5,329 nucleotides of DNA from a virus: positions 1-5,329 of IMG/VR virus record IMGVR_UViG_3300045988_044527; one strand, 5' to 3'. Positions 1 through 5,329 of this stretch are shown here, piece after piece. Under the pieces are notes generated by a model that searched no databases, had not been told where the DNA came from, and saw only the letters and a list, made by a program, of their open reading frames with translations. A program made the position numbers and the translations under genes. How positions within the stretch are numbered: position 1 is the stretch's first letter; every line of letters begins with the position of its first letter.

Positions 1-99
1 ATTTTTTTATGCGTCCTCGCTTGGTTCGCTACTACGGCCCTGATTACGATAATTTGAAACATGGTCGTGTCTATCAGGTTCATTGTCTTTACTCCCATG
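1..99. repeat. Terminal redundancy: exact copy of 5231-5329, indicating a circular genome of 5,230 nt written with overlap
   Basis: Base-by-base comparison shows positions 1-99 are identical to 5231-5329, which is the signature of a circular contig. This is not a biological direct repeat. Confidence 0.95.
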
Positions 100-167
100 G
101 CTTCATGCTGATTGATGATCACAACGAAAAGGCATATGTTTATGCCGGAAATTGTGAGGTGCTATGA
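9..167 (+). CDS. Hypothetical small protein, 52 aa (MRPRLVRYYGPDYDNLKHGRVYQVHCLYSHGFMLIDDHNEKAYVYAGNCEVL); unknown function
   Basis: The ATG at 9 is preceded across the circular junction by GAGGTG (5225-5230) at 8-nt spacing and by the promoter. It ends at TGA 165-167, directly abutting the Rep GTG start in the same frame. I recognise no family for it. Confidence 0.55.
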   Translation: MRPRLVRYYGPDYDNLKHGRVYQVHCLYSHGFMLIDDHNEKAYVYAGNCEVL

Positions 168-1169
168 GTGCCTTGCTATCATCCCATTTACGCCGTTCGT
201 ATCGGTACTAAGGAAAACGGAAAAGCTGAGTTGAAAATGCTTGGTTATACCCCGGATGACCGTGAAACCTATGTCGAATGGCACAACCACCGCTATCCTC
301 GTTCCGCTCTCGTTCCACTGCCCTGTGGTCAGTGTATCGGATGCCGCATTGACTATTCAAGGCAATGGGCAAACCGTTGTTTGCTTGAACTTAAGTACCA
401 TGATTCCGCTTGGTTCTGCACGTTCACCTATGATGATGACCACGTTCCTCGTACTTATTACCCTGATCCTGAAACTGGTGAAGCTATCCCAGCTTTGACC
501 TTGCAAAAGCGTGATTTCCAACTTTTGATGAAGCGTATTCGGAAGAAATTTGAAAATGATAAAATTCGGTTCTTCATGTCCGGCGAGTACGGCTCTCAGA
601 CGTTCCGGCCACATTATCACGCTATTTTGTTCGGTTTGCACTTGGATGATCTCCAACCCTATAAAACTGTCAAGGAAGGAGGTGAGTATTACACTTATTA
701 TAACAGTCCCTCTCTCCAAGAGTGTTGGCCTTATGGCTATGTAGTTGTTGGTGAAGTCACGTGGGAATCCTGTGCTTACACTGCTCGCTACGTGATGAAA
801 AAGCTGAAAGGAAAGGAAGCTAAGTTTTATGCAGACCACAATATTCAGCCTGAGTTTACACTCATGTCCCGAAAGCCTGGGATTGCACGTCAGTATTTTG
901 ACGAAAACCCTCACTGCGTTGAAGAACAGTATATCAACGTTTCTACGCCGAAAGGCGGAAAAAAGTTCCGTCCGCCGAGGTACTACGATAAACTCTACGA
1001 CGTCGAATGCCCCGAAAAGTCCGCAGAGTTAAAAGCCCTACGTGCTAAGCTGGCCCAACAGGCCATGGAAGCTAAGTTGTCTAATACGTCTCTTGATTCC
1101 TATGAACTGAGAGACGTTGAAGAAGAAAAACAGTCCAACCGTTTAAAATCGTTAAGGAGGAATTTGTAA
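168..1169 (+). CDS. Replication initiation protein VP4 (rolling-circle HUH endonuclease, Microviridae Rep), GTG start
   Basis: The 333-aa ORF begins with the N-terminal C-x-x-P-x-x-A-x-R motif (MPCYHPIYAVR) typical of gokushovirus VP4. It has the cysteine cluster CGQCIGCR...C; RCR motif I FCTFTYDD (nt 414-437); HUH motif II PHYHAILFG (nt 609-635); and motif III with the paired tyrosines AYTARYVMKK (Y204 and Y208, nt 777-791), as in phiX174 gene A. The RBS GAGGTG at 156-161 lies 6 nt before the GTG at 168. Confidence 0.92.
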   Translation: MPCYHPIYAVRIGTKENGKAELKMLGYTPDDRETYVEWHNHRYPRSALVPLPCGQCIGCRIDYSRQWANRCLLELKYHDSAWFCTFTYDDDHVPRTYYPDPETGEAIPALTLQKRDFQLLMKRIRKKFENDKIRFFMSGEYGSQTFRPHYHAILFGLHLDDLQPYKTVKEGGEYYTYYNSPSLQECWPYGYVVVGEVTWESCAYTARYVMKKLKGKEAKFYADHNIQPEFTLMSRKPGIARQYFDENPHCVEEQYINVSTPKGGKKFRPPRYYDKLYDVECPEKSAELKALRAKLAQQAMEAKLSNTSLDSYELRDVEEEKQSNRLKSLRRNL

Positions 1170-1276
1170 TGAAAATGCTCAAGCGTAAAGACAAGAAGGT
1201 GTTTTCCCGAACCGCCGCTAAGTCCAAGAAAATTAACATCGCTCCGAAAATCTTCCGTGGAGGTATCCGGCTGTGA
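1169..1276 (+). CDS. Small highly basic DNA-binding protein, 35 aa (MKMLKRKDKKVFSRTAAKSKKINIAPKIFRGGIRL); J/VP8-like DNA-packaging protein
   Basis: The ATG at 1169 overlaps the Rep stop (TAATG). A strong RBS AAGGAGG at 1154-1160 sits 8 nt upstream. Of its 35 residues, 13 are Lys or Arg. It is absent from the ORF track, which omits ORFs this short. It is analogous to phiX174 J and gokushovirus VP8. Confidence 0.7.
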   Translation: MKMLKRKDKKVFSRTAAKSKKINIAPKIFRGGIRL

Positions 1277-1398
1277 GTTCTGTTTCTGTTTGTGTTGATG
1301 GTGTTCCCGTGGCTGTTGTTCCTTTGTGGATGATTAAACATGCCGTTGAGGATGCTATTGCTCAGTATCCTGATAAGAAAATTACTGTGGAGGTCTGA
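1273..1398 (+). CDS. Possible small ORF, 41 aa with a GTG start (VSSVSVCVDGVPVAVVPLWMIKHAVEDAIAQYPDKKITVEV); hypothetical
   Basis: The GTG at 1273 overlaps the stop of the basic protein (CTGTGA). GGAGG at 1258-1262 lies 10 nt upstream. It ends at TGA 1396-1398, just before the next gene. There is no recognisable homology, so the call is weak. Confidence 0.3.
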   Translation: MSSVSVCVDGVPVAVVPLWMIKHAVEDAIAQYPDKKITVEV

Positions 1399-1402
1399 TT
1401 AT

Positions 1403-1654
1403 ATGATTACTGGTATCTATGCTATCAAGGACGCTAAGTCCACGTTCATGCCCTGCACCGTTGATGTAAATGATGCTACTGCCGTCCGCAACTTTGAACA
1501 TGCTGTGAGACAGCCTGATTCCCTGCTTGCATCTCACCCCAACGATTTTGCTTTGTATAAGCTCGCCACCTTTGACAACGTCGGCGGCTATATTGAGCCG
1601 CTGAATCCTCCCCGCCAGCTTTGTGACGCCGCCCAGTGCATTGTAAAGGAGTGA
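1403..1654 (+). CDS. Hypothetical protein, 84 aa (possibly the VP5-like non-structural protein of gokushoviruses)
   Basis: The ATG at 1403 has GGAGG at 1389-1393 with 9-nt spacing. Its size and its position between Rep and the structural genes fit VP5. The same frame is open back to an ATG at 1340 (104 aa with a hydrophobic N-terminus), but that ATG has only a weak RBS. The functional call is tentative. Confidence 0.55.
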   Translation: MITGIYAIKDAKSTFMPCTVDVNDATAVRNFEHAVRQPDSLLASHPNDFALYKLATFDNVGGYIEPLNPPRQLCDAAQCIVKE

Positions 1655-1658
1655 CAAT

Positions 1659-2138
1659 ATGGAGTTTAAAACTCAGTATGATGCCCGTGACCGCATCTTT
1701 TCTGACCCCGGTTCTCCTGAGCATATCACCTATGCCGGTCACTATGATGAAAAAGGCCGTGTAGTGCTTGAGGAATCCGGTCGTGAAAACCTGTATGACT
1801 ATATTCAGTCCTACGCCGAAAGCTGTGATATTCACGTTCTCATGAAGCGTTACGCCAACGGCGATGTTGACGCCCTTTCTCAGAAGCAGGGTTTCTATGG
1901 TGATTTCCTCGATTTCCCCAAGACCTATGCCGAAGCCCTCAACCACATGAATGAAATGGAGCGTCAGTTTTTGGCCCTGCCTGTGGAAACTCGTGAGAAG
2001 TTCGGCAACAGCTTCACGGAGTTTCTTGCCGCTTCTGGTGAAGCTGATTTCCTCGAACGGCTCGGAATTAAGAAAGAGCCTGCTGAGCCTGTCCCTGCTA
2101 TTCCTCAGGTTGAAACTAAGGAGGTTACAAAAGAATGA
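1659..2138 (+). CDS. VP3-like internal scaffolding protein, 159 aa
   Basis: The ATG at 1659 is preceded by the RBS AAGGAG (1647-1652), and the upstream gene's stop lies within that RBS. Its size (~150 aa), acidic character and position immediately upstream of the capsid gene fit gokushovirus VP3. The stop overlaps the VP1 start (ATGA). Confidence 0.6.
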   Translation: MEFKTQYDARDRIFSDPGSPEHITYAGHYDEKGRVVLEESGRENLYDYIQSYAESCDIHVLMKRYANGDVDALSQKQGFYGDFLDFPKTYAEALNHMNEMERQFLALPVETREKFGNSFTEFLAASGEADFLERLGIKKEPAEPVPAIPQVETKEVTKE

Positions 2139-3823
2139 ACAGAAATACCGAATCTCATTTCAGTTTGTCCCCCCATGTAGATATCTCTCGTTCTCGCTTT
2201 GACCGCTCTGCATCCCTCAAGACCTCGTTCAATGCCGGTGACGTAGTCCCTTTTTTCCTCGAAGAAGTGTTACCCGGCGATACGTTCAGCGTAGACACAT
2301 CCAAGGTTGTCCGTATGCAGACTTTGCTCACCCCTATGATGGACAACGTATATCTGGATACCTACTATTTCTTTGTCCCGAATCGTCTTGTGTGGGATCA
2401 TTGGAAGGAGTTTTGTGGTGAAAACACTGAGAGTGCATGGATTCCGCAGACTGAGTATACTATGCCCCAGATTACAAGCCCAGCTGGTCAAGGATGGAGT
2501 GTTGGAACTCTTGCTGACTATTTTGGCATCCCAACTGGCGTTGCTGGTCTCTCTGTGTCTGCTCTTCCCTTCCGGGCTTATGCCCTGATCATGAATGAGT
2601 GGTTTAGAGATCAGAACCTCCAAGATCCTCTTGTTGTGCCCACGGATGATAGTACCGTGGCTGGTGTCAATTCTGGCACGTTTGTGACAGATGTGGCTAA
2701 GGGCGGTAAGCCCTTCATCGCTGCCAAGTACCATGACTATTTCACTTCTGCTCTCCCCGCTCCGCAGAAAGGCCCGGATGTAACGATTCCTGTTGCACAG
2801 GCTGGTAGTTATCCGGTTGTCTCTCTTAATCAATATGTTGATTCTAGTAAGTCTAATGCTTCTGTTGCTTGGCAAAAATTAGATGGATCGGGTTTTTCTT
2901 TGCTTGACGGTTTAGGTATTGCTGTTGGTCAAAAACCTCGTAGCGGTGGCTTTGATTCTAAGTATTTTTCCGGTTCTATGACTGTTTCGGAAGGTGCTAG
3001 CGCAGGTTGGGATATTGCCCCGGCTAACCTTTGGGCTGTTGCTGATGGTAACGCCGCCGCCGCTACCATTAACCAGCTTCGTCTTGCTTTCCAGATTCAA
3101 AAATTCTATGAGCGTCAGGCCCGTGGCGGTTCTCGCTATACGGAAGTTGTTCGCTCCTTCTTTGGTGTGACCTCCCCGGATGCTCGCTTACAGCGGCCTG
3201 AATATCTCGGCGGTAACAGAGTTCCTATCAATGTCAATCAGATTGTACAGCAGTCCGGCACTCAGTCCGGCACTACGCCCCAAGGTACTGTTGTTGGTCA
3301 GTCCCTTACCACGGATAAGCATTCCGACTTTACCAAGTCTTTTACGGAGCACGGTTTGATTATCGGTGTTATGGTTGCCCGTTATGACCACACCTATCAG
3401 CAGGGCCTTAGCCGCCTGTGGTCTCGCAAGGATAAGTTTGATTTCTATTGGCCCGTTTTCGCTAACATCGGTGAACAGGCTATCAAGAACAAGGAAATCT
3501 TTGCACAAGGCAATGATAAGGATAACGAAGTCTTTGGCTATCAGGAAGCATGGGCCGAATACCGCTATAAGCCTAATATGGTGACCGGAGAAATGAGGTC
3601 TGCGTATGCCCAATCTTTGGATGTTTGGCATCTGGCTGATGATTACAGCACCCTTCCTTCTTTATCTGATTCGTGGATCAGAGAGGACAAGGCAAACATT
3701 GATCGTGTTTTGGCTGTCACATCTGCTGTTAGTAATCAGTTTTTTGCTGACATCTACGTGAAGAACTATTGTACCCGGCCTATGCCTATGTACAGCGTCC
3801 CCGGCCTGATTGATCATCATTGA
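2135..3823 (+). CDS. Major capsid protein VP1 (Microviridae F-like), 562 aa
   Basis: The N-terminal region RSRFDRS...LPGDTF...MDNVYLDTYYFFVPNRLVWDHWKEFCGE matches the conserved gokushovirus VP1 and phiX174 F N-terminal blocks (LPGDTF, YFFVP.R..W, W.KF.GE). The RBS AAGGAGG at 2118-2124 is 10 nt upstream. Its length is typical of gokushovirus VP1, which carries a large insertion loop. Confidence 0.95.
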   Translation: MNRNTESHFSLSPHVDISRSRFDRSASLKTSFNAGDVVPFFLEEVLPGDTFSVDTSKVVRMQTLLTPMMDNVYLDTYYFFVPNRLVWDHWKEFCGENTESAWIPQTEYTMPQITSPAGQGWSVGTLADYFGIPTGVAGLSVSALPFRAYALIMNEWFRDQNLQDPLVVPTDDSTVAGVNSGTFVTDVAKGGKPFIAAKYHDYFTSALPAPQKGPDVTIPVAQAGSYPVVSLNQYVDSSKSNASVAWQKLDGSGFSLLDGLGIAVGQKPRSGGFDSKYFSGSMTVSEGASAGWDIAPANLWAVADGNAAAATINQLRLAFQIQKFYERQARGGSRYTEVVRSFFGVTSPDARLQRPEYLGGNRVPINVNQIVQQSGTQSGTTPQGTVVGQSLTTDKHSDFTKSFTEHGLIIGVMVARYDHTYQQGLSRLWSRKDKFDFYWPVFANIGEQAIKNKEIFAQGNDKDNEVFGYQEAWAEYRYKPNMVTGEMRSAYAQSLDVWHLADDYSTLPSLSDSWIREDKANIDRVLAVTSAVSNQFFADIYVKNYCTRPMPMYSVPGLIDHH

Positions 3824-3828
3824 TTCAT

Positions 3829-3860
3829 AGAGGGGGCTTTTGCCCCCTCTTGTTTTTTCT
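3829..3860 (+). terminator. Rho-independent terminator/attenuator between VP1 and VP2
   Basis: A perfect 9-bp GC-rich stem, AGAGGGGGC (3829-3837) pairing with GCCCCCTCT (3842-3850), has a TTTT loop and is followed by TGTTTTTTCT (3851-3860). It lies 5 nt after the VP1 stop. It is analogous to the post-F terminator of phiX174. Confidence 0.75.
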
Positions 3861-3876
3861 GAAAGGAGTTGTTATA

Positions 3877-4740
3877 ATGGCATTTGGTACCACTACTTCC
3901 GCTTACGAAATGGATGGTGTCGGAGCCGCTCCGGCTGTCAACCGTGCCGCTGATCAGATCGCTGGTTTGAAAGGTGTTGCACAAGCTAATTCTGCTTTTA
4001 ACGCTGAGCAAGCTAAAGTTCAGCGTGATTGGACAGAGCAAATGACTGCAAAGCAGATGGACTTTAATGCCGCCGAGGCCGCTAAAAATCGTCAGTGGCA
4101 AGAAATGATGTCCAATACTGCCCATCAAAGAGAAGTCCGTGACCTTATGGCCGCTGGCTTGAATCCTGTTCTTTCTGCTATGAATGGCAACGGCGCCGCC
4201 GTTGGTTCCGGTGCGACCGCTTCAGCGTCCCTTGGAAGCGGTTCTAAGGCCGACGCAGATACAGCCGCTTCCGGTGCTATTGCTAACTTGCTCGGCTCCA
4301 TCTTGGGCGCTCAGACGGCGTTACAGAGTGCAAATATAAACGCCCGTACTCAGGAAGCCGTTGCAGACAAGTACACCGCTATGGAGCATATTGTTGCTCA
4401 GATTTCTGCCGCCGCTGGTATTCGGCAAGCTGGTATTCATGCTGGTGCTACTCGTGATGCCGCCGCTATGAGTTCTTCTGCTACTCGGTATGCCGCTGGT
4501 CAGGCCGCTTTAGCGTCTATCTTTGGTTCTTCCGTGAATTCTGCCGCTACTCGGTATGCTGCGGATCAACATTTGGAAGGCTCCAAGTATGGAGCTGATA
4601 AGTCCTATGACGCTTCTAAGTATGCTTCGGATATCAATTGGGATAAGGCTGTTCATTTTGGTAACGGTAGTTTTATGAATCAGATGGCCGGAAATATTGG
4701 TTTGTCGCTTTCAAGTCTTTTAAAAATGATTGGAGGTTAA
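3877..4740 (+). CDS. VP2 minor capsid / DNA pilot protein (H-like), 287 aa
   Basis: The ATG at 3877 has AAAGGAG at 3862-3868. The ORF is open from 3820, but that stretch overlaps the terminator hairpin. The protein is Ala/Gly-rich and carries the conserved block NRQWQEMMSNTAHQREVRDLMAAGLNPVLS characteristic of gokushovirus VP2. Confidence 0.85.
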   Translation: MAFGTTTSAYEMDGVGAAPAVNRAADQIAGLKGVAQANSAFNAEQAKVQRDWTEQMTAKQMDFNAAEAAKNRQWQEMMSNTAHQREVRDLMAAGLNPVLSAMNGNGAAVGSGATASASLGSGSKADADTAASGAIANLLGSILGAQTALQSANINARTQEAVADKYTAMEHIVAQISAAAGIRQAGIHAGATRDAAAMSSSATRYAAGQAALASIFGSSVNSAATRYAADQHLEGSKYGADKSYDASKYASDINWDKAVHFGNGSFMNQMAGNIGLSLSSLLKMIGG

Positions 4741-4742
4741 GT

Positions 4743-4823
4743 ATGGAAAGTATCATCATGGTTTTGTCTTTGTCCGTAGTCACGGCCGCTGCTCTAAAAA
4801 TCATAAAAGAAATTTTTTCTTAA
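4743..4823 (+). CDS. Small hydrophobic peptide, 26 aa (MESIIMVLSLSVVTAAALKIIKEIFS); single predicted transmembrane helix; candidate lysis/toxin-like membrane peptide
   Basis: The ATG at 4743 is 2 nt after the VP2 stop. GGAGG at 4731-4735 gives ideal 7-nt spacing. A TAA stop lies at 4821-4823. It was not in the ORF track, which omits ORFs this short. A hydrophobic core of about 19 residues is followed by a charged tail, KIIKEIFS. Confidence 0.5.
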   Translation: MESIIMVLSLSVVTAAALKIIKEIFS

Positions 4824-4825
4824 AA

Positions 4826-4840
4826 AGCGGCGTCAGCCGC
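4826..4840. other. Short GC hairpin (GCGGC-GTCA-GCCGC); it resembles an intrinsic terminator on the minus strand only
   Basis: A 5-bp stem is preceded on the + strand by AAAAA and TTTTTT, so on the minus strand a U-tract follows the hairpin. On the + strand the hairpin is followed by CAAAAG, which gives no U-tract. Confidence 0.4.
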
Positions 4841-4845
4841 CAAAA

Positions 4846-4875
4846 GAGACCCACGGTCTAAACGCCGTGGGTCTC
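4846..4875. repeat. Perfect 11-bp inverted repeat forming a hairpin (GAGACCCACGG / CCGTGGGTCTC, 8-nt loop)
   Basis: Reverse-complementarity was verified directly: left arm 4846-4856, right arm 4865-4875. No U-tract follows on either strand. Confidence 0.8.
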
Positions 4876-4904
4876 CGCCTGTACGTCCATTTACATTAGG
4901 CGTA

Positions 4905-4947
4905 CACTCAGCACAGTTAACTCTCTTGATGTTAACTGTGCTGAGTG
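4905..4947. repeat. Perfect 17-bp inverted repeat forming a hairpin (CACTCAGCACAGTTAAC / GTTAACTGTGCTGAGTG, 9-nt loop); candidate ssDNA origin or packaging structure
   Basis: Left arm 4905-4921, loop 4922-4930, right arm 4931-4947, verified as exact reverse complements. It lies in the main non-coding region of an ssDNA genome. Confidence 0.8.
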
Positions 4948-5129
4948 ACACCAAAGGTCACTTTGCGTGTCATAGTAGAAGTTGCTTGCACATGTCTAGA
5001 ACGTATGCAGTATTTCAAGATAAAATGTTTAGTAGGAGACCCCCGTAGGATACAAGTTCCTAAAAAATAATAGATAATAAAGTTTAAAATTTATTGGTAA
5101 ACTGAAATAGAACTACATTCTTGGTTTCG

Positions 5130-5161
5130 TGCACATTTGTGCATTTAGCCTAGAACTAGGC
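5130..5161. promoter_or_regulatory. Two 14-bp palindromes upstream of the promoter (TGCACA-tt-TGTGCA and GCCTAG-aa-CTAGGC); candidate operator sites
   Basis: Both have 6-bp arms around a 2-nt spacer, at 5130-5143 and 5148-5161. They lie 25-55 nt upstream of the -35 element. Confidence 0.3.
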
Positions 5162-5185
5162 CGAAATCTTTAGTAAATATGCAAA

Positions 5186-5214
5186 TTGATATTTTTGTTC
5201 AATCGTACTATTAT
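5186..5214 (+). promoter_or_regulatory. Sigma70-type promoter TTGATA-(17 nt)-TATTAT driving the small ORF and VP4
   Basis: The -35 TTGATA at 5186-5191, a 17-nt spacer, and the -10 TATTAT at 5209-5214 sit in an AT-rich intergenic region. The predicted transcription start is near 5221. The RBS GAGGTG at 5225-5230 and the ATG at 5239 (= position 9 on the circle) lie just downstream. Confidence 0.6.
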
Positions 5215-5230
5215 CACCTTATATGAGGTG

Positions 5231-5329
5231 ATTTTTTTATGCGTCCTCGCTTGGTTCGCTACTACGGCCCTGATTACGATAATTTGAAACATGGTCGTGT
5301 CTATCAGGTTCATTGTCTTTACTCCCATG
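5231..5329. repeat. Second copy of the terminal overlap; contains a partial duplicate of the 52-aa ORF start (ATG at 5239)
   Basis: Identical to 1-99. The ATG at 5239 corresponds to the ATG at position 9. Confidence 0.95.

Follow-up and report, generated by a model that had tools for sequence, protein, structure and literature searches.

Positions 1 to 5,329 of the IMG/VR virus record IMGVR_UViG_3300045988_044527 (5,329 nucleotides (nt), called the window below) carry the genes of a microvirus. The main subjects here are the order of these genes, a stem-loop in the non-coding region that may hold the viral-strand origin and an unannotated gene, orf52, upstream of the replication gene VP4. The two ends of the window are identical over 99 nt and it therefore represents a circular molecule assembled with an overlap, the unit being 5,230 nt long. 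The close relatives measure 5,214-5,253 nt and were deposited as circular. The credible genes are all found on the + strand, each with a GGAGG-type ribosome-binding site ahead of it. The repeat and the genes are as follows, with amino acids given as aa and with the best matches to Pfam (PF) and PHROG (phrog) families.

1-99 and 5231-5329, no strand: terminal direct repeat, 99 nt, 100% identical, spacing 5230, assembly overlap
9-167, + strand: orf52, unannotated 52-aa gene, its TGA stop (165-167) directly abutting the VP4 GTG (168) in the same frame
168-1169, + strand: VP4/Rep, rolling-circle replication initiator (HUH endonuclease) by homology, GTG start; PF23343 E=1e-17, phrog_942 E=6e-127
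1169-1276, + strand: VP8, J-like 35-aa basic DNA-binding/packaging protein by homology (MKMLKRKDKKVFSRTAAKSKKINIAPKIFRGGIRL); phrog_10695 E=2e-9
1273-1398, + strand: orf41, small fast-evolving open reading frame (ORF) of 41 aa, no family; its GTG start overlaps the VP8 stop (GTGA)
1403-1654, + strand: VP5 (Phage_ORF5), 83 aa; PF20577 E=2e-23, phrog_1670 E=1.5e-27
1659-2138, + strand: VP3, internal scaffolding protein by homology, 159 aa; PF09675 Chlamy_scaf E=4.9e-38, phrog_1642 E=1.5e-43
2135-3823, + strand: VP1, major capsid protein by homology, 562 aa; PF02305 E=1e-168, phrog_514 E=9e-235
3877-4740, + strand: VP2, DNA pilot/minor capsid protein by homology, 287 aa; phrog_5158 E=1e-103 and several PHROGs named 'pilot protein for DNA ejection'

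Read round the circle the order is (orf52)-VP4-VP8-(orf41)-VP5-VP3-VP1-VP2, followed by a non-coding region of 0.5 kilobases (kb). The gene content is that of Gokushovirinae, as VP1, VP2, VP3, VP4 and VP5 were all found with strong hidden Markov model (HMM) scores and VP1 is a Phage_F-type capsid protein with a large variable insertion segment. In the Pfam and PHROG scans no phiX-type external scaffold or spike gene was seen and no further ORF of the window matched any family. Scanned against Rfam at E<=1, the whole window returned a single chance match below threshold, BSnc120, with 21 bits where the gathering score is 114. The G+C content ranges over 38-54% across the window, and T exceeds A along the whole + strand. 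Homologues of all six classical proteins are present in the Chlamydia phage Chp2 and the Bdellovibrio phage phiMH2K, both of which also have their genes on one strand. The aa identity to Chp2 is 44% for VP1, 33% for VP4, 36% for VP3 and 31% for VP5, the corresponding values for phiMH2K being 41%, 29%, 30% and 28%; VP2 and the VP8/J-like protein have homologues in both as well. The relative KT264760, which is 90% identical, is classed as Gokushovirinae in GenBank. From these comparisons the window is almost certainly a complete circular single-stranded DNA (ssDNA) genome of a human-gut-type member of Gokushovirinae (Microviridae), from the cluster of 'Gokushovirus WZ-2015a' and related 'Microviridae sp.' records, and nothing found contradicts this identification. 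A preliminary description made from the sequence had also proposed a complete circular gokushovirus-like Microviridae genome of about 5,230 nt, with which the exact 99-nt overlap and the protein families agree. The genome as such is of an already known kind, being one more from a heavily sampled human-gut gokushovirus cluster.

The same description gave the gene order as Rep, J-like, small ORF, 84-aa ORF, VP3, VP1, VP2, and both the coordinates and the HMM identities bear this out. It is also correct that VP3 directly precedes VP1, in contrast to Chp2 and phiMH2K. The RefSeq records show VP3 after VP2 in these two phages as had been stated (Chp2: VP1-VP2-VP3-ORF8-VP4-VP5; phiMH2K: VP1-VP2-VP3-VP5-J-VP4), and their genomes are about 0.65 kb smaller with neither orf52 nor orf41. 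The description went on to call the order of the window non-canonical, which does not hold. Roux et al. (2012, PMC3394797) published VP4-VP5-VP3-VP1-VP2 for human-gut Gokushovirinae, and compared by gene order the window has the same order and VP1-VP5 content as these, with no difference in organisation. Kirchberger and Ochman (2020, PMC7062461) gave VP4-VP5-VP3-VP1-VP2-VP8 for the enterogokushoviruses and called this order "conserved (but not unique)", and the location of VP3 is known to vary (Kirchberger et al. 2022, PMC9239249). Close relatives with the same order therefore exist and are already well described, which is the very finding that the description had named as speaking against its own claim. 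Eight GenBank genomes match 94-95% of the length of the window at 90-91% identity, and their annotated order VP1-VP2-VP4-VP5-VP3 describes the same circle. The first of these to be deposited was Gokushovirus WZ-2015a from French faeces (2015), the others coming from Brazilian faeces and South African vaginal swabs; IMG/VR contigs 88-92% identical to the window were also found. Differing from Chp2 and phiMH2K is the one thing that would favour reading the order as a lineage-specific novelty or as an assembly rearrangement peculiar to this contig. Against that reading, the same order occurs in genomes assembled independently from human, pig, cat and lemur samples of France, Brazil, South Africa, China and the USA, the pig, cat and lemur genomes being more distant. 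It is found also in IMG/VR contigs, in prophages of Clostridia metagenome-assembled genomes (MAGs) and in E. coli gokushovirus prophages, and it was in print in 2012 and 2020. In all, the order VP1-VP2-(orf52)-VP4-VP8-(orf41)-VP5-VP3 was seen in more than 30 of the genomes examined, VP3 following VP2 only in Chp2 and phiMH2K, and we regard the chance of a novelty or a rearrangement as practically nil. The order of the window is the standard one for gut-associated and enterobacterial gokushoviruses, and with respect to the Chlamydia and Bdellovibrio phages only VP3 (and VP8) is placed differently.

It had further been suggested that the arrangement matches Pichovirinae, in which case VP3 before VP1 would be the hallmark of that clade. 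The window shares with Pichovirinae the character of a small environmental microvirus and homologous VP1 and VP4, and it may be noted that Kirchberger et al. (2022, PMC9239249) apply an enlarged 'Pichovirinae' label to a mixed clade. Yet Pichovirinae were defined by the core order VP1-VP4-VP2, with similarity to other Microviridae confined to VP1 and VP4 (PMC3394797). In the window VP1 (2135-3823) is followed by VP2 (3877-4740) and then, round the circle, by VP4 (168-1169), and VP2, VP3, VP5 and VP8 all match gokushovirus families and genes of Chp2 and phiMH2K. As the defining gene order is absent and the 90%-identical relative sits in Gokushovirinae, membership in Pichovirinae is scarcely credible. 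Membership in the enterogokushoviruses (E. coli prophages, PMC7062461), which share the order VP4-VP5-VP3-VP1-VP2, was not found either. These have VP8 after VP2 and are flanked by dif motifs, and their nt identity to the window is 65-71% over less than 500 nt of VP1 only; the window has no dif-like XerCD site, which belongs to the marks of that genus together with an Enterobacteriaceae host and an average nucleotide identity above 50%. An enterobacterial host was also considered and rejected, the weak short VP1 matches occurring in 7 of 5,426 E. coli genomes.

The non-coding region between VP2 and orf52 is conserved more strongly than any other part of the genome. The following features were recorded for it.

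4741-5238, + strand: non-coding region, 498 nt, identity to relatives 94-99.5% and in a further comparison 96-98%, with about 90% for the genes
4905-4951, + strand: candidate viral-strand origin, 17-bp perfect stem (4905-4921 / 4931-4947) with the loop TCTCTTGAT (4922-4930)
4946-4972, + strand: second conserved hairpin adjoining the first (TGACACCAAAG GTCA CTTTGCGTGTCA), with compensatory changes in four other genomes (L014, L018, L024, L026)
5186-5238, + strand: promoter-like site TTGATA-17-TATTAT followed by a hairpin at 5213-5232 (ATCACCTTATATGAGGTGAT), which holds the orf52 Shine-Dalgarno sequence, then T7 and the orf52 ATG

Folded as ssDNA, positions 4815-4985 reach -50.2 kcal/mol against -19.1 +/- 3.1 for shuffled sequences (z=-10), and at least four stable hairpins are present (4827-4840, 4846-4875, 4905-4947 and 4946-4972). 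The stem-loop at 4905-4947 is found again in 78 GenBank records of microviruses from many animals, including those whose surrounding region cannot be aligned, and in many IMG/VR contigs. Its loop hexamer CTTGAT (4925-4930) and the TGACAC that follows the stem (4946-4951) are invariant. The stem itself varies with its pairing maintained: among 12 diverse copies 92.6% of the cells are paired against 24-35% with slid partners, and 8 of the 17 stem pairs have changed on both sides, a number reached by none of 500 shuffles. Stems of 12-17 bp were found, usually with TGACAC after them and always in an intergenic position, but at differing places in the genome. In the E. coli gokushovirus prophage the element (L163, about 3920-3965) reads CCTGGCACAGT/..CTACTTGAT../ACTGTGCCAGG followed by TGACAC, on the gene-sense strand as in the window, and it lies between VP3 and VP1 instead of between VP2 and VP4. 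Chp2 has an intergenic 14-bp hairpin with an unrelated stem (L004, about 2905-2945) and the loop TCTACTTGAT.

The RefSeq record of phiX174 (NC_001422) places the viral-strand origin at nt 4306, the A of CAACTTG|ATA. Since the loop hexamer equals this nick core, the loop is predicted to present a VP4 nick site between G4928 and A4929, and the stem-loop is thus a candidate viral-strand origin. Nicking by VP4 at CTTG|AT of the 4905-4947 loop, on the + strand, would start viral-strand synthesis, while the neighbouring hairpins may serve complementary-strand priming. The likeness to the phiX174 origin comprises the hexamer, the predicted G/A nick and a cognate initiator that is a homologous two-tyrosine HUH protein. 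Unlike the window element, the phiX174 origin (CAACTTG|ATATTAATAAC...) lies inside gene A, has no hairpin loop and shows an AT-rich spacer and a key sequence, whereas in the window the hexamer forms part of a loop on a covarying 12-17-bp stem, lies in non-coding DNA and is followed by TGACAC. For VP4 the three motifs of superfamily I HUH initiators (phiX174 protein A type) are all present, namely motif I FCTFT (nt 414-428, aa 83-87), motif II HYHAIL (nt 612-629, aa 149-154) and motif III YTARYVMK with its two tyrosines (YxxxY; nt 777-800, aa 204-211).

The element could also be the complementary-strand (minus) origin, used by host priming proteins, or a packaging signal. phiX174 and G4 do prime the complementary strand at intergenic hairpins (PMC9865509; PMC5714925), and several more hairpins adjoin the stem-loop of the window. 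Against this reading, the hexamer that does not vary in the loop is the same as the core of the phiX174 nick site, CTTG|AT. Also, the loop is common to phages of Chlamydia, E. coli and probable Clostridia with differing stems, which fits a phage Rep better than divergent host primosomes. We consider a minus origin or packaging signal the less probable reading, although the minus origin has to be taken seriously as an alternative. A recombination site (attP or dif-like) or a transcription terminator is far less probable. Inverted arms with an asymmetric 9-nt spacer do resemble tyrosine-recombinase core sites, the stem-loop occurs in either orientation relative to the genes, and two of the prophages have tyrosine recombinase genes nearby. 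Yet the stem-loop is intact within integrated prophages (L037 and the E. coli prophage L163, whose flanking dif-like sites are elsewhere), and no prophage junction was seen that splits the hairpin between attL and attR. The window has no dif-like site even with up to 9 mismatches allowed, and the stem is followed by no T-run and so is not an intrinsic terminator.

The orientation of the element bears on which strand it may mark. In the window it has the conventional gene-sense orientation. In several IMG/VR and MAG loci (L019, L034, L037, L040, L056, L140 and the L096/L100 clade, which is abundant in sample 3300045988) the CTTGAT hairpin is opposite to all genes, still within the VP2-VP4 spacer. 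The AT skew of the gene strand runs from -0.21 to +0.20 with a sense hairpin and from about +0.26 to +0.34 (A-rich) with an antisense one. After collapsing the genomes to VP1 clusters at 65% identity, 11 sense clusters gave -0.14 to +0.19 and 5 antisense clusters gave 0.14, 0.30, 0.33, 0.34 and 0.34 (Mann-Whitney p ~0.001), the independent lineages being few and the statistics ignoring kinship. The antisense value of 0.14 includes host flank, the phage-only value being 0.30. The T-rich strand thus follows the hairpin and not the genes, with the caveat that phiMH2K, in which no hairpin was found, is also skewed (+0.29). This tracking fits an element that marks the packaged strand, and it is possible that the antisense strand is the one packaged by some gokushoviruses. 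A hairpin read on packaged ssDNA as a minus origin would likewise track the T-rich strand, and the skew does not separate that reading from the nick-site one. If the hairpin does set which strand is displaced and packaged, the inverted lineages would package the strand complementary to messenger RNA and be 'negative-sense' microviruses.

Taken in its widest form, the reading of the stem-loop as a previously unmapped gokushovirus viral-strand origin with the phiX174 nick core, extending from Chp2 through the enterogokushoviruses to the gut phages and with negative-sense inverted lineages, is put forward only tentatively. Several points limit the account given here. The CTTGAT hairpin was not detected in phiMH2K or SpV4 and is not universal in the subfamily, and the mechanistic steps are read from sequence only. 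The placement in Gokushovirinae is based on gene content, 41-44% VP1 identity to the type gokushoviruses and the GenBank taxonomy of the 90%-identical relative. Also, the only host link, described below, is through MAG prophages with at most 85% aa identity in VP1. In the searchable literature, older subscription papers on Chp1, Chp2 and SpV4 excepted, we found no description of a gokushovirus origin or hairpin. In the gut, gokushoviruses rank with the most abundant ssDNA phages, and a conserved stem-loop with a phiX174-type nick hexamer gives a directly testable origin candidate. The link between orientation and composition likewise raises a testable question, namely which strand some lineages package.

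The second element of interest, orf52, was absent from the ORFs listed in the preliminary description and is unannotated in all 8 GenBank relatives. All close relatives have it intact at the same length, and it is preceded by the Shine-Dalgarno sequence GAGGTGA. Its variable sites fall 8/4/41 by codon position, and the codon differences comprise 201 synonymous against 53 non-synonymous ones with no stops; judged by this pattern, orf52 is under purifying selection. No Pfam or PHROG match was obtained for it. A sister clade, whose VP4 is at least 54% identical and to which the prophage on the Oscillibacter contig L039 belongs, has in this place an unrelated upstream ORF of 57-62 aa ending in ...DDVVMLL. 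It is out of frame with VP4, whose start it overlaps in a GTGA, ATGA or TTGA. The two ORF families show no similarity to one another (blastp E>10) and no PHROG matches. More distant genomes have no upstream ORF, and their VP4 uses an ATG with a strong Shine-Dalgarno sequence. From this comparison we infer that orf52 is a leader ORF, by which the translation of Rep would be coupled through termination and reinitiation: translation of VP4 from its weak GTG would depend on the termination of the upstream orf52. The two genes being in frame, recoding of TGA (genetic code 4) or an orf52-VP4 readthrough fusion was also considered, and was rejected because TGA ends 6 of the 8 genes and the upstream ORF of the sister clade is out of frame. 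In the Oscillibacter prophage the equivalent ORF is preceded by a context homologous to the promoter-like site and hairpin of the window (TTGTTCAAT ... ATATGAGGTGATTT..ATG), and it is possible that these two features control the expression of orf52 and VP4.

The GTG at 168 was taken as the start of VP4, as the N-terminus MPCYHP matches the family profile from residue 1. An MxC(Y/F)HP N-terminus is kept in distant genomes, and codons 1-23 vary 3/1/10 by codon position, which is a coding pattern. In the human records nearest to the window (KT264760, the WZ-2015a isolate 12Fra21, OP971934-37 and OP549869/72/75) the genome size is 5.21-5.25 kb and the hairpins of the non-coding region, orf52, VP8 and orf41 are all present. 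The GenBank annotations are without orf52, and most of them begin VP4 at an internal ATG (window 237) and not at the GTG. This is so for OP971934-37 and KT264760, where VP4 is 23 codons short of MPCYHP and VP8, orf41 and orf52 are all left out. For annotation the value is that a conserved 52-aa gene is missing from the public records of this cluster, most of which truncate the VP4 N-terminus and many of which leave VP8 and orf41 unlabelled.

As for the host, a scan of one genome per bacterial species turned up 15 loci with a related VP1, most of them on long Clostridia/Bacillota MAG contigs. The closest is the contig of an uncultured Oscillibacter (L039), with aa identities of 85% for the VP1 N-terminus, 82% for VP8 and 60% for VP4. 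Its order is VP4-VP8-VP5-VP3-VP1, preceded by genes for a tyrosine recombinase and an IS3-family transposase and by a GH18 gene. On a 118-kb contig from Christensenella a prophage is enclosed by housekeeping genes on either side. These related prophages suggest Clostridia as the host group; they are leads, not proof, and Kirchberger et al. (2022, PMC9239249) caution about MAG-based assignment to Gram-positives. The recombinase genes (PF00589) that lie near gokushovirus prophages are at 2742-3749(-) in the Oscillibacter contig, with the start about 240 nt from the upstream ORF of the phage, and at 12586-13638(+) in the Christensenella contig (L035), and may be phage-borne or host genes. The window has no integrase. 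In four Clostridia MAG contigs (L032, L035, L036, L043) the prophages are linearised between VP4 and VP8, those of the Oscillibacter contig and of E. coli in the VP2-VP4 spacer; the linearisation points differ and so the attachment sites differ between lineages. No tRNA genes were found near the prophage ends.

Turning to the remaining genes, the homologies above show VP4 to be a two-tyrosine HUH rolling-circle initiator, VP1 the capsid, VP2 the pilot, VP3 the internal scaffold, VP8 the DNA-binding and VP5 the accessory protein. The 159-aa protein had been called VP3-like earlier, and its Chlamy_scaf match confirms it as a homologue of the VP3 scaffold. Of the extra small ORFs that had been reported outside the classical set, orf41 is indeed an extra; the J-like gene (VP8) and the 84-aa ORF (VP5) are classical gokushovirus genes, and the true extras are only orf41 and orf52. 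VP8 matches by tblastn a phiMH2K gene annotated 'similar to phiX174 J protein' (E=4e-4) and weakly ORF8 of Chp2; it is near-invariant among the relatives, the variation being 7/6/29 by codon position. VP5 is annotated as such in the relatives. The ORF orf41 is intact in 14 of 15 unique relatives, has a conserved core (VDG..VA.VPLWM..H.I.DA) and a crude pN/pS of 0.78, and carries the label hypothetical protein in OP549869. In one relative (L021) its place is taken by an unrelated ORF.

KT264760 and the other human records differ from the window at about 9-10% of nt, and the divergence has two hot spots. These are orf41, at 65% nt identity against about 90% for its flanks and the rest of the genome, and the hypervariable VP1 segment at nt 2801-3100, at 38-58% to close relatives, which is presumed to be a surface protrusion loop. 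The nearest relative differs by genome segment, VP1 of one relative (L016) being 98.6% identical in aa while its genome is about 90% identical overall, which suggests recombination. The VP3 stop overlaps the VP1 start (ATGA), and between VP1 and VP2 there is a gap of 53 nt, about the same as in the relatives, with the following feature.

3829-3860, + strand: intrinsic-terminator-like hairpin (AGAGGGGGC TTTT GCCCCCTCT, then a T-run), 9-bp stem with 7 G-C pairs, followed by TGTTTTTTCT

By its form this hairpin may attenuate transcription past the capsid gene, in which case it would tune the capsid-to-pilot ratio. The start of VP2 was corrected from the mechanical call (TTG 3820) to the ATG at 3877, which is preceded by AAAGGAG. 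The C-terminal half of VP2 contains three imperfect 33-nt (about 11-aa) repeats (...ATR(Y/D)AA...) at nt 4436-4568.

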